Positions 2,251-57,947 of a DNA stretch of 64,000 nucleotides are shown here, in pieces. The translations under genes and the position numbers were made by a program. The stretch covers positions 1,956,627-2,020,626 of the forward strand of contig MU004230.1 in NCBI GenBank assembly GCA_010405405.1. The letters are read 5' to 3'. The notes under the pieces were generated by a model. The model was not told the origin of the DNA. It searched no databases and saw only the letters and a program-made list of their open reading frames with translations. Within the stretch, counting starts at the first letter, position 1. The number at the start of each line of letters is the position of its first letter. This DNA is from Microthyrium microscopicum. Taxonomy: Eukaryota.

Positions 2251-3066
2251 TTATACCCGCTCGCTGATCCATATTGCTGCTCTGCAGCCAGTTCTTATAA
2301 CGCCGGTTAAAGCCTCATACGGTCTGGCTTCTTTGGCATCGTTTTCGACAGCGTGGTCAAGATGCTCTAATTCCTCGTCTCTGATTCGCCGTAGCGTACC
2401 GAGCAGCTCTTTCATCTCACCACTGACTTGTCCGCCCTTGGCTTCAACGTCCTGGGCCCATTTGAATAGCGTCTGCACTTGTCGGTTGTAGTGCTCGCCG
2501 ATCTCAGTCTCTACGGCTTCAGTGCAAGCCATGGCGGCCTCGCGGCCCATGACTGCGGTTGACCATCCAAGCGCGGTAGCCGCAACTCGCCACACTGGAT
2601 ACATGAGCGTGGGTCGAATGCGATGCTTTGCTACCAGCTCATTGAAAGTTTGGAAGTGGTTGGCTTCTTGATCGTACATGTGCTTCATGAGATCTTTGAG
2701 TTGAGGATTTTGCCGGACAATGGGGGGCGTCTGGGCGTCATATATAAGCACAGCGGCAAGCTCACCGGCTTGATTGACACGTAACTGCAAATGATCAGAA
2801 CCAAGTGACTCTATTTGAAGCAAAAATTACTGTCATACCGCTCTATCGAGGAATTCTTGTTGCGCCAGGCTGAGTGGTTTTTGAGATGAACTTTGCATCC
2901 GCCGTGGCTGAGAAGTGGAGATGTACCGAATTCCAAGCTTTTTTGTACTCATACAGGTCCTTGAGGACATCAATCTAATTCTACATAGTTTTGGAGAGGA
3001 GTGGGTATTAAAATTTACAAGAGAACAAAGGGGTTTGAAGGAGTGACGTGAAAAAGAAGCGGCCAT
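2251..3066 (-). CDS. COQ7: 5-demethoxyubiquinone hydroxylase (ubiquinone biosynthesis, di-iron), 2 exons
   Basis: Motifs LRVNQAGELAA, MYDQEANH, AMACTEAVETEIGEHYN, IRDEELEHLDHAV. Basic N-terminal presequence. Intron about 2785-2838. Confidence 0.95.
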
Positions 3067-3819
3067 TCTGAAATTGGAGTAGCAGTTATGCAAGGAGCAT
3101 GCAAAGGCTACGCATCATTTGATATAGGATTCTAATAAAGGAGAGGCATGACTAGCACCTTATCCCATATTTGATTTGCTTGAGTCGGGTGCTGGCGGAT
3201 AGAAGGACTGATCATTGATCTGATAAAACTTTTAATAGCCAAATGCGGAATCAGGCCGAGACGCGCGCCTGCCGCGGTTGCCAGCGCGTCGTAGTTTCCT
3301 TGAACGTGCAGGTACACTGACAGCTGGGTGGTTCTCCCCAGCTTATCCAACTTCACACTCTTGACACTCAACCTGAACATCTCCCACTTTCCAACAGCTC
3401 CCCATCAGCTTTCAATTCTACCGTGTATTGCTTCTATATCCCTTATTTCTGCTATTTTTGTTATCTATCCAGGAACCACACTCCCAAAGCCCTGCGCCAG
3501 ACGACTTATACCGTCAACTCGAGCTCCTTCGTGCTTGCATACGTACATAGACAGACGCCTTTCACCCATCAGTTGTGACCAATATTTCATCTGATCTCCA
3601 TCGCCGAGCTCTTCGCGCTCCTTAGATCTATATTCCGCATAAATTGGATTTCTACTACGAGACCCGTCGCACCTGCACCTTCCCTCTACAATCAGCAGCC
3701 ACTGCTCATTAAAGAAGGCACGACCCCTTTTTTAAGAACTGTCAGGAGTGCTCCTTCCTATCCTATCTTCTGGGTCGCTATTGCCATTTAGTTGCTTTAA
3801 CTCCGAAAACTCAGTGACT

Positions 3820-5535
3820 ATGTCCGGTCTCACCTTGGACGATGAGCTGCTCATGCTCGCCGCTGGAGGTGATGAGTCTGCCGAAGAGGGGGAAGCTTCA
3901 CCACAAGATCACCACCATTCCGGTCACTCAAGGTCTCCATCTCGGTCACCTTCTCGATCTCTTTCTCGCTCTAGGCCTAGGTCACTCTCAAAGTCGAGAT
4001 CCCGTACCCTTTCGCGCTCTCCTCCACCTGCTTCGGCCTCACACCACCCAAAATCTCCAGGTTCCCCTTCGAACTCCAAGATGCCTGCATCACGAAGCGA
4101 TAGTAGACCGCGAAAGGACGATTCAGAGGAGGAAGGCGAGGCGTAAGTCTTCTTTCATTTATCCATGAGTAAGTCGCTAAAACTCTGCAGTTCTGATGGC
4201 GCTGGCTCGCCTGGATCTCTTGGTTCCGGCGCTATGGATGAGTCAGACTCTGAAGGTTCTGACGGCGACGATTTTACCCGTCCGATTGAAGGAGAGACTG
4301 CATTCGAGCGCGAGAAACGACTAGCTGAGCAGGCTGAGCGCGATGAAGAGCGACTAAAATCGGCAAAACTGAAGGCTTTGCTCAACGATCGAGCTCCTCG
4401 CCCTGATATCTCCAAGTCTACTAAACGCAAGGCTGTTGATATAGACGACGATGATTTCGGACGTCGGCCCTCTCGTCAGCGCGCAAAGAAGGATGACGAT
4501 GATGATGAATATACTGGTCGACGTGGCAACCGCCGCCGAGATGATGTATCAGATTCCCCGGAGCGCAACTCTTATGTCAAGGAGAGCAAACCGAAACGTG
4601 ACGACGGAAAGCAACCCGGCTCGCTTCAGGAATACGAGCGCGTGCGAGTAGGTCGTTCCAATTTCCATCAAATCTGCTTCTATCCTGGATTCGAGGACAC
4701 TTTTAGAGGATGCTTTGTCCGGGTTGCAGCCCATCTCGATCCAGTTACTGGTCAAAACCAATATCGCATGTGTCAGATCAAGGGTAAGCTCAATGCTTTG
4801 ACATAATTCATCAAATCTCTAATCTGAACAGGCTTCAAGACTGGAAAACCGTACAAGATAATGGGAGCTAACAACCGAGCCTACATGACGGACACTATGC
4901 TGATAACCTCGTATGGTCCGATCGACAAGGACTATCCATTCTCAGCCTGCTCCGACTCTGCTTTCACGGAGGAAGAATTCCTTCGCCGCAATCAGATGTT
5001 GGACAGCAAGAGCATATCACAGTCGACCTCCATATCCCTTCAGAGCAAGTGCAAAGCCATCAATGAATTCCTTGAACGCAACTGGACTTCAGCTCAGATT
5101 AGTGAGAAAGTCGCCAACCAATTCCGCCTCAATCATCTTCTGAACAATGGACAATCTAATGGCATGGCCGGAGCACCTAAGCTTGAAGATCGTGATGCTG
5201 GCTTGGCTCGTCGCAATGCTGAGAACCGACGTTTGAACCAAGAGCAAGTACGCAAAGCTCTTACAGACGAGCGGCGAAAGCGTCAGAAGGCCGGCGAGCA
5301 AGCGGCGCGTAAGCAGAAAGAGGAAGAGGAGCGGAAGCAAAAGGCCGAACTTGACGACCTGTTTGGCGATGATGACGCAGAAGAGAAGAAGTCGGAATCT
5401 CCAAAGGCAAAGCCAGTCTCGAAGTACGTGGTTCGTGACTACAAGAAAGGTGTATCAGAGTTCACTCGCCTCAAGACGGATGACGAGATCATTGCGTCTA
5501 TGGATTTGGATATTGATATCGATATTGATATTTAG
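3820..5535 (+). CDS. RTF1: Paf1 complex subunit Rtf1 (Plus3 domain), 3 exons
   Basis: LDDELLMLAAG N-terminus, ETAFEREKRLAE segment, Plus3 domain (RVRVGRSNF...FYPGFEDTFRGCFVRV...YRMCQIKG...ACSDSAFTEEEF). Introns about 4143-4191 and 4784-4830. Confidence 0.88.
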
Positions 5536-5678
5536 TCTTCTCAACAGCAGTACCTGACCATCACGAGGTATTTAAATATGAACTAGCCGCATTGCGTGGA
5601 ATTTCGGATCAGAGGTCGGTGAGAACTGTCATAACACTGGGAATAATGCACTAAATAGAAAATATTGTCAATGGGCAA

Positions 5679-6915
5679 TCACCTGCCCATCTCTTTGACA
5701 TCCAAATTCCGATATCCTTTACTTTCCTCATCCCATGGCGGCGGTCGTGAGAAGCGCAACGCCGGTCCCAACTTCGTAAGTTTCGTTACTGAACCCGTAT
5801 CCTCAGGCGTTGGCGAAAAGCCTTCAATAACATCCGACTCTCTACTCCGCGATGACGAACTGCGTAAGAATGTACTCCACCCAAACACCTTTCTTAATAA
5901 CGGCCACCAACACATGAGATTCGCCACATAAACAGCCACACTCGTCTCTCGTACATCCCATATCATGTACACAGTACTATTCGCGCTCGTAAAATTATAG
6001 TACTTTGCCAGCACCGCCGCCAGCACCACAAAGCTTCCAAGGCTGAATATGCCAACGAGCAATGCGCGTTTCAGAGGCGGCACTTTCGCACCGACGACGA
6101 ATGGTGTGGGTATGCCTAGCATCAGCAGATCGGAGGAGACGTTAAATACCATCTGAATGATGCAGTAGTCGAAATATGTCGCACATTGCGTGTTGTTTGG
6201 CGGCATGGCCCAGTATTGTGAGAATGGGCGGCATAGGATGAAGAAGTAGGGTACTTCGATGGCTATGAGGCCGAATATCACGTATCCGATGACTATTTTG
6301 ACGTATGTGTGGTTGACGGTGTCACGACTGGAATTCCGTTAGCAAACTTCTTGCTATCGCTTCCCCTGAATTATGGGATCGCTACTCACGTCATTCGATA
6401 ACTAAAAGGTAACACAGTTAGTATATACTCTTTACCAGGAACCACTGATACTCAACGAGGAAGAGGAACTTACTACAACATCAACAAACAAGCCTTAACC
6501 CCCCAAAGCGTAAGCAAATACGCCTGATTCGAACCAACCACAATCTTACTCCCATAAATCCGATCCTTTACATCTTGCGGGTTCGCTAATATACCATCCA
6601 ATTCACCAGGATGGAACTCATTGGTCGCATAGCGGGATGAGAATTGAAGTAGAATGAGCAGTGATGTGTACAGACTGAATGTGCCCATCATCATGTAATC
6701 GTCGGCCTGTAGCTTCTTCCATGAGCCGCGCAGAATAGCGCGAGACCATCTAGCAGGCAGGACGGGTTAGTTGGGTTTCTATTACTCGATTGCTTCAATG
6801 GTGATTGGACACAGCAGCGGAAGACTTACAGGCGTCCGAGGAGGAGAAAAAGGCCGATGGTCCAGAAAGCGATGGATTCGGTTAGGAGTTGCGAGTTTGT
6901 TGGAGATGAGACCAT
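5679..6915 (-). CDS. PTH11-like (fungal rhodopsin-domain, non-CFEM) integral membrane protein, multi-exon
   Basis: Spliced reading MVSSPTNSQLLTESIAFWTIGLFLLLGRL/WSRAIL...KLQADDYMM, SKIVV...LWGVKACLL, CRPFSQYW, NVSSDLLML.IP, RETSVAVYVANL. These are typical PTH11-family motifs. Confidence 0.85.
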
Positions 6916-42076: not shown

Positions 42077-43718
42077 TCAAGCCAGCCACCCTTTGATAAT
42101 TTCTGTAATCGTATTTTGAACCTAGATGTTCGTTAGATCAAGTTGCAATACCGGAATTTCAGGCTCATACCAGATCAAGCTCAGAATTAAAGCCTACCGG
42201 CTCCCCAATATTCGAGAAAAAGTCTTCTGTATGGCTCAACCCAGGCATAAAGACAATTCTAGTCGAGTTGGAAGATGTCGGCATGTCAAAAGTTGGAGGT
42301 CCATAAGCTGTAGTTGGGTCATAGCCCTGTTGTGTAATCAAAAGCCTTCCGACACTCTCCAATCTTTCCTTAGATACATCGAAGGTGTTGATCCAGTATT
42401 GACTTGACTCGTTGAAGTGTGGGCCCGTCCATTCAGGAACAGCACATGTCACTGGTACGTTCTGTGGCGGGAACATGCTTCCATTGCGGACTGAAAAGAT
42501 GTTATAAATCATGTAATTGCATTCAATCCATTCCCAGCTTTTCATTGCGACGTCAGCAACAGCTCCACCAGTGATGTTCGGAGATTTCCAGTCTAGACAC
42601 TGGCTTTGGTTGAGTTGCCAGTTTAGAAGCATTGCTGGAATCCGGAGAATGCTTCCGGTGTCGTTGACTTGAAGAGTCTGGTTTAAAATGTGCTGTAGAG
42701 GAAGACTTATTGGAAATGAAGTTGGTATGCGACTGTTGAACTGTGTGGCGTAGGTATAGGCCGATTCAACTGCAGAATAGAGTTCTAGCCATTCTGTGGA
42801 ATTGGCAGGCTGCGGACCACAGAGATGAAACTTGCCAGAAATCGAATTGCATGCTTCTTCTAATATTTGTAAGTGATGAATACAGTGAAGTCTTGGTCTA
42901 ATACTTACCACTTATAGCACACGACTCAAAATCGTACATTGCTTTACTAATCTTCGTGGAGGCTTCAAAAGACTGGTCTTGAAAGACTCTCGAGATCTGT
43001 TTACTTCCATTAGAACTAAGTATTTTGCTCGGATGCTTTACTTGCATAATCCCAGCGATTGAATCTATCCGGATTATCTGCTTGAGAGCCAAATGCCGAC
43101 AAAGGTGGAGCAGAAGCCCAGGCTGCATAGAACGTCTCTGGATGTTGAGTCCTTGCTACAGTTGCTAGAAAGCCACCATATGAGCCTTGCGCCAGGTAGT
43201 CAGCAAATGATTAGTAGAAACAATTCAAGTCTTCCAGTCAGCCTACCTCCATTTATAACAACTTTGGCATTTGAAGCGCCTGCGACAGTTTGCTTGACCC
43301 AATTCACAAAGTTTACAGCGTCCAACAGTACGTTTTCCAAAGTCAACACCGCAAAGTCTTTTGCAGTGACATTTGCAATTCCGACCCCAGCAGGGAAGCT
43401 GTCACCAAAAAAGCGATGTTCCAGGCCAGCGACAATGGCCCCCAGCTCTCCTGCTATGTCATCGAAATGGTTGTATTCAAGACAGTTGATTTGTGAACTT
43501 TCGGCGCCTTGGTAGAATAGAATCGGACCGCCAGGTTTGTACCGAGATGTGTCTAGTTGATAGCTTTGATGGAAGGTCGTTTTGTTGGTAGAGTTGTGAT
43601 CCAACAGCTGGGCGAACTGGCGTACTACATATTTGGGACATTGCGCTGCAGAGACTTTTGCTAAAAGCTGCATTACCGTGCAGAGAAAGACAAAGAAACG
43701 AAGTGTAGTAGTCCGCAT
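42077..43718 (-). CDS. Secreted serine peptidase family S28 (prolylcarboxypeptidase-like), 4 exons
   Basis: Signal peptide, QLLDHN, YKPGGPILFYQGAE, LEHRFFGDSFP, spliced GG/SYGG nucleophile motif, GYDP, LSHTED. Confidence 0.9.
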
Positions 43719-44116
43719 ATTGTGGTAAGTTTGTCAAGTTCAATCGGATGGTTGAAGTGTTTTGCGACATCCTCAACACGAGAGTCTAGAGAGTATTTTA
43801 TAGCTTCTTGGTCGAGCCATGACGTTGAAACAATCAACAATTCATTGTGATGATAATGGTAAATTCTTTTCGAGCTCCGCGGTGATGCCATGGTGAGTCG
43901 TCCATGATTTCCTAATCCGGTTGCATGTCGCATTGTGGAACTCCGCCATCCGCCTACCTGCATTGAGGCTCAGCCGCTAATGGATCGACAAGCAGATCAA
44001 CCATCCTGCAGCGGGCGATGATAGACAACACTGCCTTATTTATCGCAAGATGCCTCCCGACTTGGTAGAAAACACAGCTCCCGATGTTCATCGTCGAGTA
44101 TAATGGTTGGAGTTCG

Positions 44117-44298
44117 TATGACGGCTCATAACGGCCACCCTAGCCAGTTTAGCAAAACCAAAAAGTACAAAGCTCTACATTTTATAAATACAATATTCCT
44201 ATACCCATTTCCCTATTTTAGCGCTTTAGATAAATTCTAAAAGAGATATTCAAAAATTACATATTTTTTAATACCTAAATTAAGGTAATTAGTAATAA
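44117..44298 (+). repeat. Left terminal inverted repeat (182 bp)
   Basis: TATGACGGCTCATAACGGCCACCCTAG...TAAGGTAATTAGTAATAA aligns without gaps to the reverse complement of 55345-55526 (about 16 mismatches by eye). Confidence 0.96.
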
Positions 44299-44317
44299 TA
44301 ACTATAATATAGCAATA

Positions 44318-44593
44318 GTATAGCTATATTAGTAGGTAAAGTATAGCTATATTAGTAAGCAAAGTATAGCTACGTTAATAAAAAAGGGTAAGATAAGTAT
44401 AGCTACGTTAGTAAGTAAGGTATAGCTACGTTAGTAGGCAAGATATAGCTACGTTAGTAGACAAGGTATAACTATATTAGTAAGTAAGGTATAATTACGT
44501 TAGTAAGTAAGGCGCTAAGAAAGATATAGCTATATTAACAATAAAGGTAACAAGAAAGATATAGCTACATTAACGAGAAAGGTATAGCTATAT
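44318..44593. repeat. Subterminal tandem array of about 11 degenerate 23-bp units (GTATAGCTACGTTAGTAAGTAAG-like)
   Basis: Units read directly just inside the left TIR. Differences between units are mostly C/T and G/A. Confidence 0.9.
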
Positions 44594-44749
44594 ATTATTA
44601 ATTAAGGTAATATAATTAGTATATATATAGATTAGTAATAAAAATTAATTAAGAAAGGCTTTTAATTCTTAACGATATACTAATAGGTAGAAGTTAACTA
44701 TTATTATAAAATCTAATATAAAGTATAGTATTTTTCTCTTCTTCTTTAG

Positions 44750-46480
44750 TATTAGTTATACCTCCTAGGCAACTTTCATTATACTAAATACTTATATTAA
44801 TTTAATTATATACTAAGCCTCTATTAAGAGCTTAGTATTAACTAAAGGCTATACTAATACTAAGGTTTATAAATAGCTTCTTAATAAATATAGTATAGAG
44901 GTTTCTATTCAAACTATTTATTAAAGAATTAATAAATAGGGGATTTAAAGAAGAACTATATAGCTTAATAAAAATTTAAAGAACGTAATAAAAGCTTTGT
45001 TTTACGTCTTTAATAGCAATAAGAGGGAGATAATATATACCCTATAAGATTATAGGTATAAACTTTCCTAAAAGACTTTATAATAATATTACTAAAGGCT
45101 TAGAATATCTTATTAATAAGACTATAGATTATATTAAGAGTTCTACAAAGTATACTTTAAGGATAATTATAATACAATTTAGTATAAGCTTTAATAATCC
45201 TATCTTAGTATTATAAATTATAGATACTATATATTAGCAATAAGAATTAGAGCTTAGAGACGTAATATACCTCTAAGAAATATTCATTTTATCTAACAAT
45301 AATTAGATCTAGAAGCTACTACTACTTAATAGAAATAAGTATATTAAAAATAGGGCAAATATAAAGTTAAAAGTCTAGATTATATTTAGTCTATTAATAA
45401 GTATAATAAACTAAAGCAATTTAGCTTTAAGATTTATAGCTATATTAACGCCTACTTAAGACATCTTAACTATTATAATATTAGTATATTAAATAAGATA
45501 AGTATTAGTTATCTCTACTAATACTTAGATTATTTAGAAAGTAGATTAATTTAGCTATAATTTATTTAATTAGACTAAGGTAGTGAAATAATTATACTTG
45601 CTAATACTTATTATAAATTCTTACTTACTTATAAACTTAACCTTTATTTTAAGGACTATTTCTTATATAGGATAAGTATTACTAACTAATAGATAGAACG
45701 TTAATAAGGAAATCTTAGTAAATCTATACTAAATAAATAGAGAGTAAGTTTTATCTTATTAAAGTAATACTAATATATATTCTAAAAGATATACTAATTC
45801 CCTATAGAAGTTTTTTAAGTAGCTTTAAAGAGATAGCAAATTTTTATAAGATAGACTTACTAATTATATTATAATACTAGCTATATTTATACTTATCTTA
45901 TAAGATATTATTACTAGATACGTTTATAACTAGAATAATTATAAGTTAACTAATACTAAGAAAAGGCGCCCTAATACTATTAATAGAAAGCTATAGCACC
46001 TATATAATTATCCTTAGAACGTAGAGAAGATTAGCTTACTAATTAATCTTAAACTTATCTACATAGTAAAGTAATAAGCTAGTAACTAGAATAAAGATAC
46101 CTATCTATCTAAAAAAACCCTCTAATAATACTAATAAGAACTATAGTAGATAGGGTTTAATCCCTCTATAGATTCTTTTAGCAACGCCTAAAATTACTAA
46201 AGAAAGACTAATCTATTTAGAAGCATTTACTTAATTCTAAAGAGTATACTAAATAAATATATTCTTAGTAAATAGTTACTAATTATGTATCTTTTAGTAA
46301 TACTAAGCAATAGAGAGAATTAGATTAAAGCTAATCCTAGTTAGCTTACTATAGTTGTACTAGCTAATATAGAATAAGATAAAGTTAGGAAATTTATTAA
46401 AGTAAAGATAGCTAAGTTCTATACTATATTAGATATAGTAAGGATAGACTACTTTTATATAGAGTAAGCTCTATATTCTA
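44750..46480 (+). pseudogene. RIP-mutated DDE transposase (IS3/IS481 integrase-core, IS3EU-like); outer boundaries approximate
   Basis: In one frame, reversing only C>T/G>A changes gives NYGYRML, LDPEA, Y.VKGPDYIWSIDGYDKLKQFGFEIYGCIDAYSR, FIRSDRGSET, LYGTSVANQRIERWW. After a probable intron it gives YVHNWNNH and GKPWHLYNYP. Catalytic codons at 45396, 45573 and 45696. Confidence 0.85.
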
Positions 46481-49400
46481 ATAATAAGTCTTAGCTTACT
46501 TATTATAATACTTTACTATAAATAACGCTTTTCTAGTAGATAGATAATATATTTCTTAATTACTCTTTATCTAAGAAACTTAATTCTATTATATAAGAAC
46601 TTACTCTCTACTAATATATATATTAGGTTAATACTTATTTATTTCTTTAATATTTATACTCTTATATTTTTAATTTTATATTTATTATATTAGCTTTAGG
46701 CTCCTTTCGTAGACTTACTTAGATACTTAACTCCTAACTAAAAGGCATACTATGTCTAGCTTACTAGGATATAGATATAGCTTAGTAAAGAAGTTATAAT
46801 TAGAATATAGGTATAGAGTATTCTTTTTACTTCTAAGAAACTAGTATTTACTAAGTAAAGAGAATACCTTAACTAATAGAGAAGTAATTAAAAAAGAATC
46901 CTTAACTCTAAGTTAGATTACTACTAGAATTAGTAGTAATTAAAGAAGAAACTATTATTTATAATATTAAGTTATATCTATCGCCTACCTAATAAGTTTC
47001 TATAATTAAGACTAAATAATTTAGGTCTATAGGTAGTAGCCCTATATCCTTACTTAATTTATATATTTAAATAAAGGATTATTAGGATAGAGAAGAAGAT
47101 ATGCTAATATAAATAGAGTCTAAAGCTTTTATTACCTAGTTAGCTCCTTACCTAAACCTAGTATTAGTTAGGAATATAAAAATAGGTTAGCTTTAAAGTA
47201 TTAAAGATAATTTAAGTTTAATATATTAAAGCGCTAAAAAGACTTAAACTAAATAGCTTTATAATTTTAATACTTAGAAGCTTTTTTATAATAATATACT
47301 ACTAGATAGTAAAGAGATATTCTAAAAAGTAGCCTAAATAAGTAAGTTTACTAACTTACTAATAGAATATAGACTATTAGCTAATAAGAGCTAGGTTTTT
47401 TTAGTAGTATTATCTATTAGAGTAATATAGATAGTATTTTATACTTTATTATAAAGATCTTATTTAAGCATCTAGACTAGGATATTATTAAATAGTTTTA
47501 GGTATTATATAATAAGAGCAAAGGTATAAAGTCCTATATCTTCTTTTATAACGATATAGAGGATACCTAAGGAGGTATAGATAAAACTAAAAAAAAAGAA
47601 CTAAGGTTTAATAAGGTTAGTAAAATATACAACGAACCTTAGAGCTTAGAAGATTTTTTTAAGAATAGGCTATTTAAGCTAAAGAAGAAAAAGGGGACAA
47701 GTAAAGCATAATTTAATATTAACCTCGTCTTTTAGATTATAAGAATAAATTATAAGGCTTAGGTAGATTACTATAAGTAACTTAATAACTTAGAAACCCT
47801 AATTTTAAGAGAATAAGGATAACTTAGTAAAATAATACTAAGGCCTAAATATTTAAACACTATATTACCTATACTACTTTTAATTTAAAGTATTAAAAAG
47901 GAGAATAAGCTTAGTAGTACTATTACTATAGTTAATCCTAATACTTTTTAAAAGATTAAGAAAGAGTTTAAGCTAGCTATAATTAATCCTAAGGCTTTCC
48001 TTAACTTAACTAGATAAGGTAATGATAAAGATAAAGTTTCTAGCGAATTTAGTAATTCTAATAATAATAGAGAGCTACTAGAGGATAAAGAGCTACTAAA
48101 GGAAACTAAAGGTAATAATAACTATAAACTATACTTAGAGCTAATAAAGAAAATTCTTACTAAAAAGAAAAAGAAAGGTAATAATATAGAAAAGTTAAAG
48201 CTATAAACTAATAAGGCGCCCTATAAACGTAACGCCTTTAATACTAAGCTATTTAATTAAACCTTTTAAAAGTATAGAAAAGAGCTAGCAGTAAGCCTAA
48301 AATAAAAATAGAAGGAAGTAGAGGCTTAATAAGTTATATAGCTTACTACTAAGAAAGGTCTATAAGGTAGCTTAGGTAGGAAAAAAAAAAAAGGACGTAG
48401 TAATACTAATGAGTAAGATAAATATAGTAATACTACTAGTAGAAACTAATTTATCTTTATATCTCTTTACTAGTACTCTCTAGTTCTTCCTTTAGGTAGT
48501 TTTACTTTATATTACTAATAATATTACTTTTAGGTCTTATCTTTATTTTAATTTATAATATAATAATGCTACTAAGTAGAGCTTACTAAAAGAGGATAGG
48601 CCTAGCGCCTAGCTAGTTAAATAAAATAATATTAGTTTATAAATATAAAATAGCTTCTTATTAATTATTTAAAACGCTAGAGCACTTTAGCCTTAGGCCT
48701 TAGCTTTTACTAGGAATACTAACTAGGAATACTATATAGATAGTAATGCTATCCTTAAGAAGTAGACTATACTAGGCTATGCTAGACCTACTAAAAACTA
48801 GCTACTTTTTATTATTAGATATAGTGTTAATTTCTTTAATTCCTTAAAAAAAATTAATTATTTATTATTCCTTTAAGGCTTTAAGTAAAGAGAATTAAGC
48901 CTTTACGCCGCTTATATAGGCTTTAACTTATATAAGACTAAATAGTTAGGAAAGACTAATGCTTTGTCTTAAATAAGGACTACGTAATCTAACGATATAT
49001 CCTTATAAGGCTATATGTATATTACTAAATAATAAGTAACTAGCTTATTAAACTATAATGCCTTATCTTTATATTACTAAACTAAGCCCCTCTAAATCCT
49101 TAAGTAGTTTATTAACTTATAAGTCAAACCTAAGTAAACGTTAGTAAGTATAGTAATTAATATGACTTAGTAAAAAGAAGTTATAAAGTAGGATATAAAA
49201 AACTAGTATATAATAATAAAAAAAGTAAATAATAAGCTTAAGGGTAAGTAATATATAATATTTTTATAAACACGCTAGAAACAAAACCTAAATTAATAAC
49301 TAAATTAATTAAAAGCTATACTAAACTAAGAATCTAAATACTAAGGAGTTATTAGTTAAGTATTAATATAATTCTATAAAAAAATTAGTTATGTTTCTAT

Positions 49401-52400
49401 CTAATAATATTAACTACTTACTAAGAAATATAATAATAGTAGTTAAGCTCTAACTCTAATTCTAAAAAGACTTTTATAGCCTACTAATCTATAGAAGAGT
49501 TATAGTCTTGTTTAAGATAGATATAATATTAATTAATAGGAAATAACTTAAGAAGAGTTAATAAAGTTAATTATTAAGCCACTAGGTACTTAAAAATATA
49601 GATAGTAAGTCTTTTAATATCTAGACTATATCTTTCTAAGACTTTTTAATTAAGAGTAACTCTATTTTTTTCCTTATATATAATATAGTTATCTATATCC
49701 TTATTATTAAATTTATAATAGCACTCTAATAACCTCTTGCTATTATATTTATAAAAAGAGTAGCCTTTATTAAAGTTAACCTCCTAAACTAATTACTTAT
49801 TCTCTCCTTATTCTTTCTTAATCTTTACTCTATTTATCTCTTTTAAAGCTCTTAAAGATATATTAATTTTTTTAGCATTATTTAAAATATAAATAAGCTA
49901 ATAGTACTCTTTTTATTTAGTACTATCTATCTAAATAAAGCTTACCTTAGCCTTACTTATATTTTTAAGAATTCTTCTTACTTGCTTATATAATCTTTAT
50001 AATCTACTTTAAAAACGTATTAATAATATTAATACGCCCTTACCTTCTAAAAGATTTAAGTTACTAAACTTAACTAATAAGCCTATCGTATTACTATTGC
50101 GATCTATATATATCTTTATTTCTTCTACTTTTAAACGTACCCTAAAAATATTTAACTTCTCTTTACTATCTATATAGCGCTAAAGGTCTTTATAGAAGAG
50201 CTCTAAGTAAAATTCTTTAATTTAATATTATATTATATTAATTTATATCTAGTTATTAGTATTAAGGACTTAATTAAATCTATAACCCTTAAAGTAAATA
50301 TTATTAAGATAATATATAGGACGAAATAAAGCTTATAATTCCTTAGCTACCCCCTAGTAAACTAAGAAAGTAGCTAGAAATGTATAAGCTTTATTTATTT
50401 TAAGGACTTTTTAGCTAAATCTTTCTATATTAGAATATCTTATAAAGTAGCAACTTTAACTATAGAGTAAGATCTAAAGAAAGTTATACCTATATTAACT
50501 TATAATTTTAATCTACTCTTTGTCCTAGATGATATACTACTAAAAGATATACTATATTAAAAGAAAGTTAAATATAACTTATATATACTTCCCTTAGTAT
50601 TTTTAAGTCTTTATCTTTTAATATTAGACCCTAACTACTCCTTAGGTAAATTAAGAAAATAATTAGGGTTTAATATAGCTCTAGAAGAGCTAATACCTAC
50701 CTAAATTAGGATTTTTATTAGTCTAATATTAAGTTAGTATTTTTTTTAATAGTAGAAGAAAGTAGATAAATTCTTACCTATTAGTTATCTTGTTACTAAT
50801 ATATATTTCTTCTACGTAAAGTACTGCCTTAATTAATAATATAGTAGGTAGAGATCTAGTACTTTATTAGTATATATATAATAAAGTCCTTAGTAGAGAT
50901 ATACTATTATGTTAGATATAACTATCTTTCTAAAAAGAAGCACTATTAGCTATACTCTAATTAATATCTATAATATATATCTAAGTTTATAATTAGCTTT
51001 AACTTATTAATATAATACTATCCCTATAGATAGAAGACTTCCTAAAAAAATAAAAGAACTAAATATATAATAAGTATCTAAGGTAAGTAAAGTAGTATAC
51101 TTACTTTACTATCTTAGGCGTAATAATAATAAGTAAAAGTAAATGTATTAAAAAATAACTATTAAAATAAATAAAAATACTAAAGGTAATCTCTACTATC
51201 TTAAAGCAGATTAGTAGATAATAGAATAAATTTAGGACTTACTTAAAGCGTATATTATAAGCTTAAATTTAGCGAAGGATAGCTTATAATATACTTTTTA
51301 TATTTTTATTTTTATTAGTTATAATATATAAAATATAAGCTTACTATTTTATACCCCTAGATATTCTAAATAAATCCTTAGTTTATTCTTAAAGCTATTA
51401 ATTATTACTAGGTAATGAGGTAGATAGATACATAAGCCCTATAAGTTAAAAGTTTAACTACTTAGATTTTATAACATTCCTTTATAAATAAGCGTAACGA
51501 CTAATTAGTAACTACTATAGCTAGTAATATATTTTTAAATATTAGCTAACTCTAAGCTACTCTTTTACTATTTAATTATCTAGTATTTAGATATATACTA
51601 TAGTTACTACTTCTACCTACTAGGGACTAGCACTTTTTAACTTAAGAAGAACGCTACTTAAATAAAGATATTTAGAAATAGTTAATTAGCTTGCCTCTAT
51701 ATATTAATAAACTAATAATAATATTTATTAATATCTATTTACGTTATCTAGTATATATTAATAGAAAGTATATCTCTACCTTTCTTATAATATACTACTA
51801 ATTATATACTAAGTAATAAAGTTTCTCTATTTTTTTAGAGGCTTCTATATCTATATTCTTTTAATAATAATATTTACTACTTTAGATTAATAATATATAC
51901 TAAGATTTTTATCTAAGGAAAAATTAGGTATATTTAAAGTATAACTATTAGTTAATAAATAATATAGTTAAATTACCTTAATAAGGCTACCTAGAGTCCT
52001 TACCTAATAAACTTAACCTTCTTAGAAAAGATATATACTTTATATTAAAGTAAAGAGTATAACCTTTATTATACGTTAGGGCTAATATATTAGATATACT
52101 TATTAATACTAGATTAAGGTAGAATTACTTTTTATAAATAGAAATACTCTTAGTAAAATTAAGAGCCTATAGTTTATATAGGTTAATAATCCTATAACTT
52201 ACTTATACTATTTATATTATTCCTAATATAGTACTTATGCTTCCTAAGGATATAGAGTACTATATAGAATTATCTCTATATATAATAATAATAAAGCTAT
52301 AATAATATTAAAAAGTCTTTATATAGCCTAGTTTAAATGAAAATTATAGTAGAAAATTATAATAGTTAGCTTTAGTTTTTAGGCTTTACCTTCCTCTTAA

Positions 52401-55055
52401 TTGCTAACTTACTAGTATTTAGTTTAGATAGTATTTAAATAATATACTAGTTTTTAACTAACTTTCCTCTATATTATAAAATATAAGCTTCTTTAATATA
52501 TAGAATAACCTAATTACTATACCCTAGACTAGAGTATAACTACTACGTAAGCATAATAGGTTATATAGAACTATAACCTTAGGAAAGTATTATTAGTAAA
52601 ATAAGTAAAGGAAGAATAAGATTAGACTTAAAAAGTATACTAGAATTATTCTATTATAACTAGTAAGCCTATCTATAAAATAAAATTTCTAAATAAAGAA
52701 GTAATTAGTTATTATTAATAAGCCTATTATAGATAGTAGTCTATAGTAGGCTATAACTAATAAAGGGTAGTAATATTATTTATATTCTATATATAATATC
52801 TCTAAGTAGTAAGTAGTTATAGTATTTAGTATAACTAAAATACTAATTAATTAATAGTTAAAAACTACTTATATTATTATAAATTAACCTAGCGCGATAT
52901 AATATATTAATATAGAACGTATTAATATTAAAAATGTTAAGACTTTTTTTTAAAAGAAAAAAATTAATATAAAAAATACCTTACTATTTTAATCTTTTCT
53001 AGAAAGCATATTAGAAAAGAGCAACTAATAAAGTATAATAAGACATTTCTAATAATAAATACTAAAGCATAAATAGTTATAAAGATTATTATAATATTAT
53101 TACTTTAAAAGGGTCTTAATATTAATTAAGATCTATTAAGATGCTCTTATAGTAATTTTACTAAGTATTAGTATAAATATACTACTTAATAAGCTTTATT
53201 ATAGAAAGCTCTGCTTACTTAAGTAATACGTAGTATTAAATACTACTACTTAGTAATAGAAAGGCTTTATAGCTATCCTAGCTAGTTAATACTTATATAT
53301 TTAGAAAACTAGACTAAGTTATAAAGATAGGTTAGACTAGTAATCTCTACTAGTTTTAGCTACCTTAAAGCTAAGTAATTATTAAATAGTACTTTAAAAA
53401 GTAACTATAAGTTATTCTTTTTATTTTACTAAAATAAATATATATAATAAGTAAAATAATATCTTAATTCTTTAATAATATCTCAATTCCTTATATAATA
53501 AGTAAAATAATATCTTAATCCTTTATGTAAGATATTTCTTTATAAAGAGTAGATACCTTAATATATTTTAATAAGTTGTCTATAGAGTACGCGCTATAAA
53601 TAAAATACTAAGCATTTTATTATGAGGTATCTTACTATATATATTCTCTTAAGTAGTCTCTAAGGAGGAATAGTATAGTAAGCTTTATAATTAATTTTAT
53701 ATATATAAAAGTATACTATACTAAAGAGTATAGGATTAAGAGTAAAGAAAGCCTTTTAGCTAAGAAAGCTTACTCTATAGTAATAGGATATTATTCCTAA
53801 AGTAATACTTACTACTAGATTATTATAGTAAGACTATATAGGTATAAAACTACTATATAGTATAAGCTTAATATTATTATAGATTCTATGTGATTTTTAA
53901 TATTATATATTAGAATTTACTAAGATTTTACCTCTTTTTTTCTATAAAAGAGCTAAAAATCTATTATTACTTTACTTACTTAGCTCTTAATATAGCTATA
54001 AAGAAACTTAGTAAGACTTAGGTACGTATACTACTTGCTATATAAACTAGCTTAGCGCTACTTAGATATAATAGCTAAATTAGAGTTATAGTCTCTTTCT
54101 TACTTAATACTAAAAAATTTTACTTTATTAAACCTTCTCTACTATAATTTTATTACTTAATTATATTAGTTATACTTAATTTAATAAAGGAATATAAACT
54201 TATATACAATTTAGCTCTATAAGATTATTATATAGTAGTACTAACTATCTTAGTACTAATCTTACGCTATTTCCTTACTTTTTTTACGTTCTTATAAGCA
54301 TAGTATTCTATAATAGTAGGCTAGCCCCTTAAATATTTAAATATAGATACGTTTTATAAGATAATTAGTATTTATAAAGAATACTTACGCCTCTAGCGTT
54401 AGTAGTTCTACTAATTAGTAAGCTAAATAGTATATATAATAGTTTAGTACGTAAGCTAAGAAATATAGGCCTACTAAAACGTAACTTTACTTTATATAAT
54501 ATAAATAGAGAAGTCTAAAATACTCTATATTAATGTCTTAAAGCTTACGTAATTATATTAAAAGCTAGAAATTACTTTTAGGAATGTAAATTAGTAGTAA
54601 AGGAGTATTAAAAGATATCGTAACTAAAAGGATAAAAGTTTTTAGTAACTTAGACTTACTAAAAGTTAGTAAAGTGATTATAAGTAAAAAGGATAATGCG
54701 CTAGAATAATATTATTTAATAAGGAATTATGCCCTTCTTGCTATTAAGATATAATACTTAACCTAAAGGGATAATATATAAAGGAATAACTTAAGAACCT
54801 ATAAAAGGGATAATATCCTAAAAGGAATATTATAGCTAAGGCTTACTTATAAGCTAATTTAGTAAGGAACTACTACTACTAAGCTTTACTAAACTTTACT
54901 ATAGTTATAAATCTATAACCTTACTTTTATCCTTTTAAGAAAGGAGCCCTATAGTGCTAGCCCTAATTAAAATCCTTATATAGAGTTATTTTATTTATTA
55001 AAACTATTTTAGGGAAGATATTATAAGTATAGTCCTCCTAAAGAATATTCTCTTA

Positions 55056-55322
55056 CTAAATTTAGTAAGCTTTTCTACGAACTAATATCTTTGCTTATAA
55101 TATATCCTTATAACTATACTAAAATCTACCTATAGCTTATAGCTTTTAACTTATAAGAATATCTTCTAGAGGCGCTTTTTCCTAAATTTAGTAAGCTTTT
55201 TTATAAATTAACATCTTTACTTATAATATACTCTTATAACTATACTAAAATCTACCTATAGCTTATAGCCTTTAACCTATAAGAATATCTTCTAGAGGCG
55301 CTTCTTCCTAAATTTAGTAAGC
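55056..55322. repeat. 126-bp tandem repeat (2 full copies plus start of a third) just inside the right TIR
   Basis: CTAAATTTAGTAAGC recurs at 55056, 55182 and 55308, and the intervening sequences align. Confidence 0.9.
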
Positions 55323-55344
55323 CTCTAACTAATATCTATATTAG

Positions 55345-55526
55345 TTATTACTAATTACCTTAATTTAGGTATTAAAAAATACATAATTTTTAAATATCTC
55401 TTTTAGAATTTATCTAAAGCACTAAAATAGGGAAATAGGTATAGGAATATTGCATTTATAAAATGTAGATATTTGGACCTTTTGGTTTTGGTGAAGTAGC
55501 CAGGGTGGCCATTATGAGCCGTCATA
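55345..55526 (-). repeat. Right terminal inverted repeat (182 bp)
   Basis: Ends ...CAGGGTGGCCATTATGAGCCGTCATA, the reverse complement of the left end. Confidence 0.96.
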
Positions 55527-57947
55527 GTTCGAAAGAGCAACGGTTGCTTGACCTGCCGAAAAAGCAAGATCAAGGTCAGTCCCAGGCTCCCAGCGCCCAC
55601 ATTTCTGAGCACAACCACGTCAACCTGTAGGCAAAATAACCTAGCCCTATCGTATCCTTCCAATTATCCAAACTGTGATGATCGCCTTTCTGCATTATTG
55701 AATGGCAGGCAACGGAGTAGAGAGGACCAAGCACGGCCGTCATTTCGTTGACGACCTGTCCTGCTCAACCACAGGAAAAGAGCCAGGGATCCAGGCTAAC
55801 AAATGATAGTGCGACGAGACAATTCCTACATGTACGAGATGCGAAAGACGCGGAACTCAATGTCGCTACCCGGAGAAGTTCTCGTTCGTCAAGAGCAACG
55901 AAAGCTCTCGATCCATTTCGACCAAGGACAGCCATGATGTTACGATACCTGTCAAAACAGGCGAATATACCTTCACCACTGAGAGATTCACTGAAAGTGG
56001 AGCACTGATTCAAAAGTGGCATCGCTCCAGAATTAGCTGCCAGCCAGCCCTTGCGCAGGTTGAAAGGCAATCAATCGAGCTGATAAGGTGCCTGGATCAA
56101 GGTCGCATAGGAGCTCGAATGAACTGGTTTGGCGAGTGGGTGTCCCTAGTACCACAGCGGATAGGAACATCGGATGCACTGGATCAAGCTGTGAAGGTTA
56201 TGGCTTTGGCTTATCAAGCAATTATACGCAATGATTGCCCTTCAACTTGGATCGATCCACGCGCTTATGCTCGTGCTTTGAAAAGCTTACGACGAGCTCT
56301 CACAGATGAGACCGATTGCTGGTCTTGCGAGACCTTGACGGCCGTCACTATACTATATTATCTCGAAGTAAGTGCAGATTCCATGTGGGAGGTCTAGACC
56401 AGTTTCTGACTCGAAATGTGCAGGCCATCTTGGGCAACCCAAATGAATTCAACGCGGTCCAGCATGCCGGAGGCATTGTCCGCCTACTTGAAGTTCGAGG
56501 CCCACCACCCAATCCTTCGAGATTCGAAACATCAATCACTGCCCATTTACGTGGTCCTGTGGTAATGAAGACACTCGCTTTGATCCCAGTGTCTTAAGCT
56601 AACAACGAGAAGGTTATGAAGGCAATACAGTTTGGTGTGCCTTGCTTCTTCACATCTCCAAAATGGAGCTCGATTCTAGAGGCTGAGGAGGCGTCCGCGG
56701 CAACTCCTCCTTGGGCCCAAAGGCTAATACAGCAGTTCTTGTGGTGGAACGAGCTGATTGTGGAAGTTCGTGGGTATCTCAATGGTCAGCTTTCGATAAC
56801 AAAAATTGGAGATCTCCAGAACAGACTTTCAGCCACAAAAATGATCTTGGATTCAATCAACGAGGACATTGAAGAAGAGCTTGCCAACGAGGAGCATATC
56901 AAGTCAGTGATTAATGCCAAAGCCGATTCAGCGTTTGAAAAAGCATTTAGTCCAAAGAGTTATGCCTTTTCAAGTCTGAGCATGATACATGCTGGCTTCT
57001 CATTTGCGATCGACAGAATGCTATTTCTAACAAACCGAAGCAATGTAACACCATGCTTCCCAGGCGTCGATAGACCATGGACTATTCAAAAGCCGCAGAT
57101 TTTCGCTAGAATGTGGCAGACCCACCAATACGCATTAAAATTACGACCTGTCGGAGCATCGTTTATGCATCTACCACTTATGCTAGCATTCATGCATGCG
57201 GAATCTGACGAAACCAAAGCTCTTATTCTCGATGCCATAAACCAAATTAACGAACATCGGCTGGAACAGGGACAACGATTTGTAGCTGCCTCGGTGGCAT
57301 ACATAGCAAAGTTATATACAGGCGAAGTGCCGCCAATACCAGCCGCGTCATGATTTATGCTTATACCAGACTCAAAGCAAATAGTGGTCTCCAAGGCCCG
57401 GCACAATTATTGTTCAAAATTTCGATGGCTAGATTAGAATCCAGATAGAATGCAGAACTAGAGTAACGTCGTATCCTTGAGCGCCAGAAATCCAACTCTT
57501 AAAAGTTTGACGTCACGCTGTATTTGAGGTAATTGTTCAAAGTCGGCATCTTCAGCCTTGTAAATCGTTATGCAGCTGGGTTGCGACTCCGTGGAGGCAA
57601 CTCGAGCGCAAGTTTAAACTTATCTCAAAATTTCCTCTTTCGGAATCATCCTGCGACACTGCATAAGATCGGCACCTGTCACTTAGTGGCGATTTCTACT
57701 GCTTTCTGAGCCACAAATGTCATTCTTGACTTGGTAGTCGTAGAGGAATATTTCATAGGCCTATTCTGGTCCAAAAATAGCCGAAAACAAGATATAAGAC
57801 TCGAGCCTGCAGACCTTTTGTGCTGAAATGCAACACAGCACCTTTGCATCCGACTTCCAATACCCTCACCAGCACCTCGGGTTTAACGCAACATCAAAAC
57901 AATTTCTCTTGCGAATCCTTCCGATTCATTAATTACTAAACCTCAAC

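Follow-up and report, generated by a model that had tools for sequence, protein, structure and literature searches.

The disruption of fungal genes by transposons that are afterwards degraded by repeat-induced point mutation (RIP) is well known, and the case presented here is a biologically ordinary event of this type. It lies in a 64,000-nucleotide (nt) stretch of Microthyrium microscopicum DNA (assembly GCA_010405405.1, contig MU004230.1, positions 1,956,627 to 2,020,626 of the forward strand), hereafter called the window, whose numbering is used throughout. An 11,410-bp element at 44117–55526 splits a zinc-cluster transcription-factor gene of this fungus in codon 5. Like the class II insertions in fungal genes that were later subjected to RIP, it combines inverted repeats and a target-site duplication (TSD) in a coding exon with RIP indices confined to the repeat and with many copies diverged by transitions. 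Compared with these known disruptions, nothing is different in kind. What is particular is the codon-5 position with its stranded ATG, the gene body that is still transcribed, and the lack of visible RIP leakage into the flanks within 100 nt. The insertional disruption of the DNA-binding domain is very probably real. Among the papers listed by full-text searches, none deals with this locus or with the transposons of M. microscopicum.

At the left junction, ATGGTTGGAGTTCG passes directly into TATGACGG, which makes 44117 the first base of the element, 14 nt past the A of the ATG at 44103. At the right junction, CCGTCATA is followed by GTTCG and AAAGAGC, and the last element base is 55526. As a consequence of the insertion, the ATG and the zinc-cluster domain are now 11,415 bp apart. 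An assembly artefact at these junctions was considered and rejected, as contigs assembled independently from a DNA run, likely of the source sample, match 43400–44145 and 55468–57500 with 0 mismatches and enter the element from both flanks, extending 59 nt into it at the right junction. No joint leading from 44116 to 55532 occurs among the best 15 of the 19 contig joints.

The termini are fixed independently by other copies of the element, which start and stop at 44117 and 55526 in contigs of a second run, X5. This run is labelled only "RNA?" and was treated as RNA because its contig on the disrupted gene carries two GT..AG joints. It has 0 mismatches to the window and contains the same element family, so that it probably derives from the same strain. 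One of its contigs, 566 nt long, carries 44117–44171 at one end and 55486–55526 at the other, and in two more, unrelated sequence gives way to a copy of the inverted arm at 44115 and 44117. The 566-nt contig suggests that a short, non-autonomous form of the family, resembling a miniature inverted-repeat transposable element, is present in transcripts.

Read across the element, the gene is complete. The 14 nt at 44103–44116, joined to 55532–55574 and the three exons that follow, give 497 codons with 0 internal stops and GT..AG at every intron. The first-pass annotation of this stretch, made from the sequence alone, had proposed that the stranded ATG and the downstream exons rejoin across the element to complete a six-cysteine cluster, and this is borne out. 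The read-through protein has the motif C-x2-C-x6-C-x6-C-x2-C-x6-C at residues 10–37, in agreement with the spacing of Zn(II)2Cys6 factors (C-x2-C-x6-C-x5-12-C-x2-C-x6-8-C near the N-terminus). The ATG at 44103 has a good context, with A at −3 and G at +4. Exon 2 alone matches the Pfam family Zn_clus (PF00172) at profile positions 13–35 of 39, with 22.3 bits over a cut-off of 21. For the fungal middle homology region (e.g., PF11951, PF04082), no Pfam match was obtained with exon 2, exon 4 or the public protein of this gene (P0002, see below) at E-values up to 0.1.

In the strain that was sequenced, this domain has no intact, translatable form. As the first-pass annotation had pointed out, the right inverted repeat contains a TGA at 55515, in frame with the cluster, and an ATG at 55514 that is out of frame. 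The next in-frame ATG is at 56119, and the open reading frame (ORF) starting there encodes 375 amino acids (aa) without the zinc cluster. The same annotation had held that the ORF track misses the DNA-binding domain entirely. This applies to the first part of the domain; the stop-to-stop list compiled here contains only 55810–56397 and 56598–57353. From the stranded ATG, a 45-codon ORF (44103–44240) now extends into the left inverted repeat; it is covered by no RNA contig. If the old promoter still fires, this 45-codon peptide would be all that is encoded at the stranded ATG.

The assignment of a five-codon fragment to a gene 11 kb away depends on the relatives of that gene. An exhaustive search with exon 4 in a 50%-identity library found 27 proteins, and word-based searches add one, giving 28 (P0002–P0029). 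Apart from the public protein itself, the word-based searches, whether made with exon 2, the public protein or a 4-sequence profile, yielded just one relative. Two of the full-length relatives described next are among the 27 proteins of the exon 4 search. The 28 proteins comprise 23 pieces of 47–303 aa that lack the N-terminal domain, one protein of 2,076 aa without the motif, the public model and three proteins bearing the six-cysteine motif: P0026 (510 aa), P0028 (525 aa) and P0029 (599 aa, Dendryphion nanum). The pieces of 47–303 aa, which fall among P0003–P0027, are probably single-exon calls made on fungal contigs by prokaryote-style gene finders. That orthologues should start with an MVGV(R/P)K-like sequence had been named beforehand as a check on the reconstruction. 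All three motif-bearing relatives begin with MVG and have their first cysteine at residue 10, just as the read-through protein does, with which they align end to end at 23–27% identity. Their match to Zn_clus starts at profile position 2–3, compared with 10 in the public model and 13 in exon 2 alone. P0028 and P0029 also reach 16.2 and 17.4 bits with Fungal_trans_2, under the cut-off of 21. The read-through gene thus resembles this MVG subgroup of Gal4-type Zn(II)2Cys6 factors in its six-cysteine spacing at residues 10–37 and in its alignment over the whole length. It is unlike them in that its cysteines 1 and 2 are, in this strain, cut off from a start codon and lie outside the RNA contig. 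At the columns where the three relatives agree, the gene keeps 40 of 58, the same share as each relative keeps.

The databases present the gene differently. Exon 2 is 100% identical to part of BT63DRAFT_474443 [Microthyrium microscopicum], a hypothetical protein of 513 aa (P0002), which can be rebuilt exactly from 55514–55618, 55810–56367, 56424–56561 and 56613–57353. In this model, translation starts at the ATG at 55514, the donor at 55619 ends the first exon, and the product has a transposon-derived N-terminus with four of the six cysteines. It is a deposited model, its frame is open, and GT and AG are present at 55619 and 55809. The resulting protein has no six-cysteine motif, the first two cysteines being missing, and matches Zn_clus only partially (positions 10–35 of 39). 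None of the three motif-bearing relatives has an N-terminus of this sort. The RNA contig described below, which begins at 55625 and keeps 55625–55809, supports neither the exon nor the intron. The model looks like a device of the gene caller to reach an ATG; it is almost certainly incorrect, and its first exon is judged to be an annotation artefact. The public record consequently carries a transposon end as its N-terminus and lacks a third of the DNA-binding motif, and counts or alignments of zinc-cluster factors that include it inherit the error.

The RNA run contains a single contig on the gene, 1,742 nt long. Its GT..AG joints confirm introns 2 and 3. It begins within predicted intron 1 and is continuous through 55809/55810, so that 55625–55809 is retained. 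It has no loose end, does not join across the element and includes no other upstream exon. The first-pass annotation had pointed to a full-length zinc-cluster transcript, made from another upstream exon or by splicing out the element, as the result that would speak against disruption; the contig offers neither. Because 55625–55809 is retained and an upstream join is absent, it supports neither the intron of the public model nor a full-length mRNA. The assembled RNA is without 55532–55574, and with this segment the codons of cysteines 1 and 2 are missing; nor does it have an in-frame start from which the cluster could be translated. On this RNA, the in-frame stops at 55804 and 55807 end the frame just ahead of exon 2. 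The longest ORF starts at the ATG at 56119, behind a leader of about 494 nt with eight upstream ATGs (ORFs of 7–44 codons). Contigs of the RNA run do not cover 43739–44114 or 55527–55624, and these gaps were not used as evidence. The earlier description of the locus as a natural knockout holds for the DNA-binding domain; it does not extend beyond it, since the spliced RNA contig still covers the gene body.

The same contig bears on the possibility that the element is removed from the transcript as a giant intron. With G44116 and T44117 at one end and A55526 and G55527 at the other, the segment 44116–55527 has GT..AG bounds, including a donor-like GTATGA and a TAG acceptor. Its removal would add 3 nt, keep the frame and restore the factor with one extra residue (MVGVLRKSNGC), which would also fit with a gene that has not decayed. 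The element resembles introner-like elements, which are transposons that create introns on insertion, in that it has GT..AG bounds once the single base adjoining either end is included and in that its removal would keep the frame. It differs from them in that the contigs of the RNA run contain no joint across 44116–55527, although contigs show presence and not absence. No RNA contig joins 44115/44116 to 55527/55528, and the contig on the gene retains 55625–55809, which a full-length mRNA would normally have spliced out. Given termini of T...A, the chance of GT..AG arising at this place is about 1 in 16. Known introners are far smaller than 11.4 kb, and an intron of 11.4 kb with 23% GC is far beyond the usual size of fungal introns. 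Splicing of the element as an intron is hence extremely improbable, and insertional disruption is the reading followed below.

The composition of the element changes sharply at its borders, with a GC content of 0.23 compared with 0.46–0.49 in the flanks. RIP is generally indicated by a TpA/ApT ratio above about 0.89, a (CpA+TpG)/(ApC+GpT) ratio below about 1.03 and a composite index above 0. The element passes all three thresholds (1.67, 0.14 and +1.52), and the flanks show 0.57–0.69, 1.25–1.49 and −0.63 to −0.92, respectively. Measured in steps of 100 nt, the switch takes place within the terminal 100 nt of either arm, and the first 100 nt of each flank looks unaffected. In the DNA run (X1), 2,663 contigs match the stretch at a likeness of at least 80%. 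Each flank is represented by a single contig with a depth of 101–116. Within the element, the summed contig depth, which is not a copy number and serves here only as a sign of many diverged relatives, amounts to 595–1,668 at 44.3–49.5 kb and 2,257–6,582 at 49.5–55.2 kb. Transitions account for 1,323 of the 1,400 variant places in the DNA-run contigs (C>T 358, G>A 402, A>G 297, T>C 266), and transversions for 77. The picture that emerges is of a terminal-inverted-repeat element that exists in many copies and was degraded by RIP, its membership of a multi-copy family being the presumed reason. The step in depth at about 49000–49500 may mean that the 11.4 kb are composite, through a nested insertion, or that the right half is common to more abundant deletion derivatives.

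Class II status follows from the terminal inverted repeats with a flanking duplication and from the multiple genomic copies. The element opens with TATGACGG, and its 24-nt terminus recurs inverted at 55503–55526 with one difference. This motif has only these two sites in the window at up to three mismatches (0 expected from 100 shuffles) and 0 exact matches in metagenome contigs. The arms differ at 19 of 190 positions, by 12 transitions and 7 transversions. The termini are TA..TA. No transposase gene is recognisable in the element, which contains no stop-to-stop ORF of at least 100 aa and, with all six frames translated and stops read as X, matches 0 Pfam families at E-values up to 1. A scan of the whole window with Rfam gave 0 matches.

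No superfamily can be assigned, because no transposase is readable. TSDs of 5 bp have been reported for hAT5 families in one source (PMC12730594), which also gives TSDs of 2–5 bp and CA..TG termini for the CACTA/Mirage/Chapaev/Transib clade. Ginger2 elements have inverted repeats of 50–180 bp, and TDD-4 and TDD-5 have 5-bp TSDs, according to another (PMC2836005). The likeness of the Microthyrium element to hAT5, to the CACTA/Mirage/Chapaev/Transib clade and to Ginger2/TDD is limited to a compatible TSD length, and its TA..TA termini differ from the CA..TG of that clade. A further-reaching proposal sees in the element the relic of an undescribed ascomycete DNA-transposon lineage, characterised by a 5-bp TSD, 190-nt inverted repeats, TA..TA termini and subterminal arrays of 23-nt units, with the 566-nt short form in transcripts; its right end, or adjacent DNA, would in addition drive the decapitated gene and so yield a useful regulator without a DNA-binding domain. 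Taken as a whole, this proposal is unlikely.

The following course of events is proposed. A DNA transposon with 190-nt inverted ends would have entered codon 5 of the Gal4-type Zn(II)2Cys6 gene, duplicating GTTCG and moving the promoter and the first 14 coding bases 11.4 kb away from the remainder of the gene. RIP of the inserted multi-copy element would later have produced the 23%-GC stretch without a readable gene and spared the single-copy flanks. Insertion of an active copy, followed by RIP in place, is probably the correct order, since a copy already at 23% GC would be a poor substrate; mobilisation in trans of a copy that had already undergone RIP is also possible. Transcription of the gene body presumably now starts at the element's right end or beyond it. 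The mRNA would begin in the former intron 1, whose donor is gone, and would encode at best the 375-aa protein. Because such a product lacks the zinc cluster, sequence-specific DNA binding by this factor has probably been lost in the strain.

The age of the insertion may be judged in two ways. The insertion could be old and fixed, with the gene persisting because a product without the DNA-binding domain, started at the ATG at 56119, has a use of its own. In line with this, the 478 codons after the break are intact, two introns are correctly spliced and conserved columns are kept; moreover, the element is very heavily mutated, and its arms differ at the 19 of 190 positions given above, 7 of these by transversion. 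A few sexual cycles can, however, be enough for RIP to leave a repeat heavily mutated, so that such mutation gives no date. A leader of about 494 nt with eight upstream ATGs is also a poor template for translation of the truncated product. An old insertion kept for such a product is very unlikely. A young insertion is a reasonable reading, with arm divergence inflated by RIP and a single strain seen.

Several points weigh against the disruption as described. Only one strain is represented and no empty site was seen, so that the pre-insertion state is reconstructed and not observed. The DNA contig at the left junction reaches only 29 nt into the element, compared with the 31 nt of the bridging rule. 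RNA contigs do not reveal where a transcript truly starts and tend to lose its rare isoforms, which leaves room for a minor full-length mRNA. The gene is undecayed and has kept its conserved columns (40 of 58), features that a still useful gene would likewise show. Finally, the label of a cut-and-paste transposon is based on inverted repeats, TSD and copy number only, with no transposase recognisable.

Table 1. Features of the disrupted zinc-cluster gene, the inserted element and the adjacent peptidase gene in the window
Feature	Position	Strand	Remarks
Divergent S28 serine carboxypeptidase gene	43200–43738	−	Peptidase_S28 N-terminus in ORF 43200–43733; RNA contig ends at 43738
Presumed original promoter and 5' leader, between the S28 gene and the stranded ATG	43739–44102	+	
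Stranded start codon and 11 nt (M V G V and two bases of an Arg codon)	44103–44116	+	
TSD GTTCG, left copy	44112–44116	.	Direct reading
RIP-degraded terminal-inverted-repeat (class II type) element without recognisable coding capacity	44117–55526	.	Ends, RIP indices, ORF and Pfam scans
Left terminal inverted repeat	44117–44306	.	190 nt, 90% complementary to right arm
Subterminal tandem array, ~23-nt units	44298–44584	.	Directly inside left inverted repeat
Subterminal 126-nt tandem repeat, 2.2 copies, 91% matches	55051–55322	.	Inside right arm
Right terminal inverted repeat	55337–55526	.	190 nt; contains out-of-frame ATG 55514 and in-frame TGA 55515
Exon 1 of the public model	55514–55618	+	Start in right inverted repeat, other frame; donor 55619 restores frame
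TSD GTTCG, right copy	55527–55531	.	Direct reading
Remainder of original exon 1, with cysteines 1 and 2 (K S N G C L T C R K S K I K)	55532–55574	+	
Predicted intron 1, GTCAGT...TAG, CTAAC near 3' end	55575–55809	+	In-frame stops 55804, 55807
Spliced RNA contig, 1,742 nt, 0 mismatches	55625–57471	+	55625–56367 / 56424–56560 / 56612–57471
Exon 2, cysteines 3–6 and start of middle region	55810–56367	+	First in-frame ATG 56119
Intron 2	56368–56423	+	Spliced in RNA, joint 56367 to 56424, GT..AG
Exon 3	56424–56561	+	
Intron 3	56562–56612	+	RNA joint 56560 to 56612 (cut one place to the right fits equally), GT..AG
Exon 4, stop TGA 57351–57353	56613–57353	+	

The disrupted gene is neighboured by genes for a TOG-domain protein, a sedolisin-type peptidase, a Get3/ArsA ATPase, ribosomal protein S19e, an E2 enzyme, the S28 peptidase and an ISWI-type remodeler. 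A role as pathway-specific regulator of a metabolite cluster was considered and rejected, the neighbours being housekeeping genes. Only about 365 bp separate the S28 gene from the stranded ATG, a distance that fits a shared bidirectional promoter region. Parts of the locus were also encountered in other samples. Run X6, which carries a different organism label, contains identical pieces of low depth (43400–43436, 55674–55926 and 56495–56649), and a soil metagenome run, X8, contains 56800–57014 (215 nt) with 2 mismatches. None of these pieces spans either junction. Both samples contain this fungus or one very close to it.

M. microscopicum is a leaf-litter fungus. The case raises no new question, since disruptions of this type are well known. 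The locus is worth recording for its wrong public gene model, for a beheaded gene that is still transcribed and for an unclassified element family with 5-bp TSDs. It is also a clean example in three respects: RIP is confined to the repeat within about 100 nt, relatives make it possible to assign a five-codon fragment of a first exon to a gene body 11 kb away, and a single insertion beheads a regulator and leaves a gene body that is transcribed and spliced.

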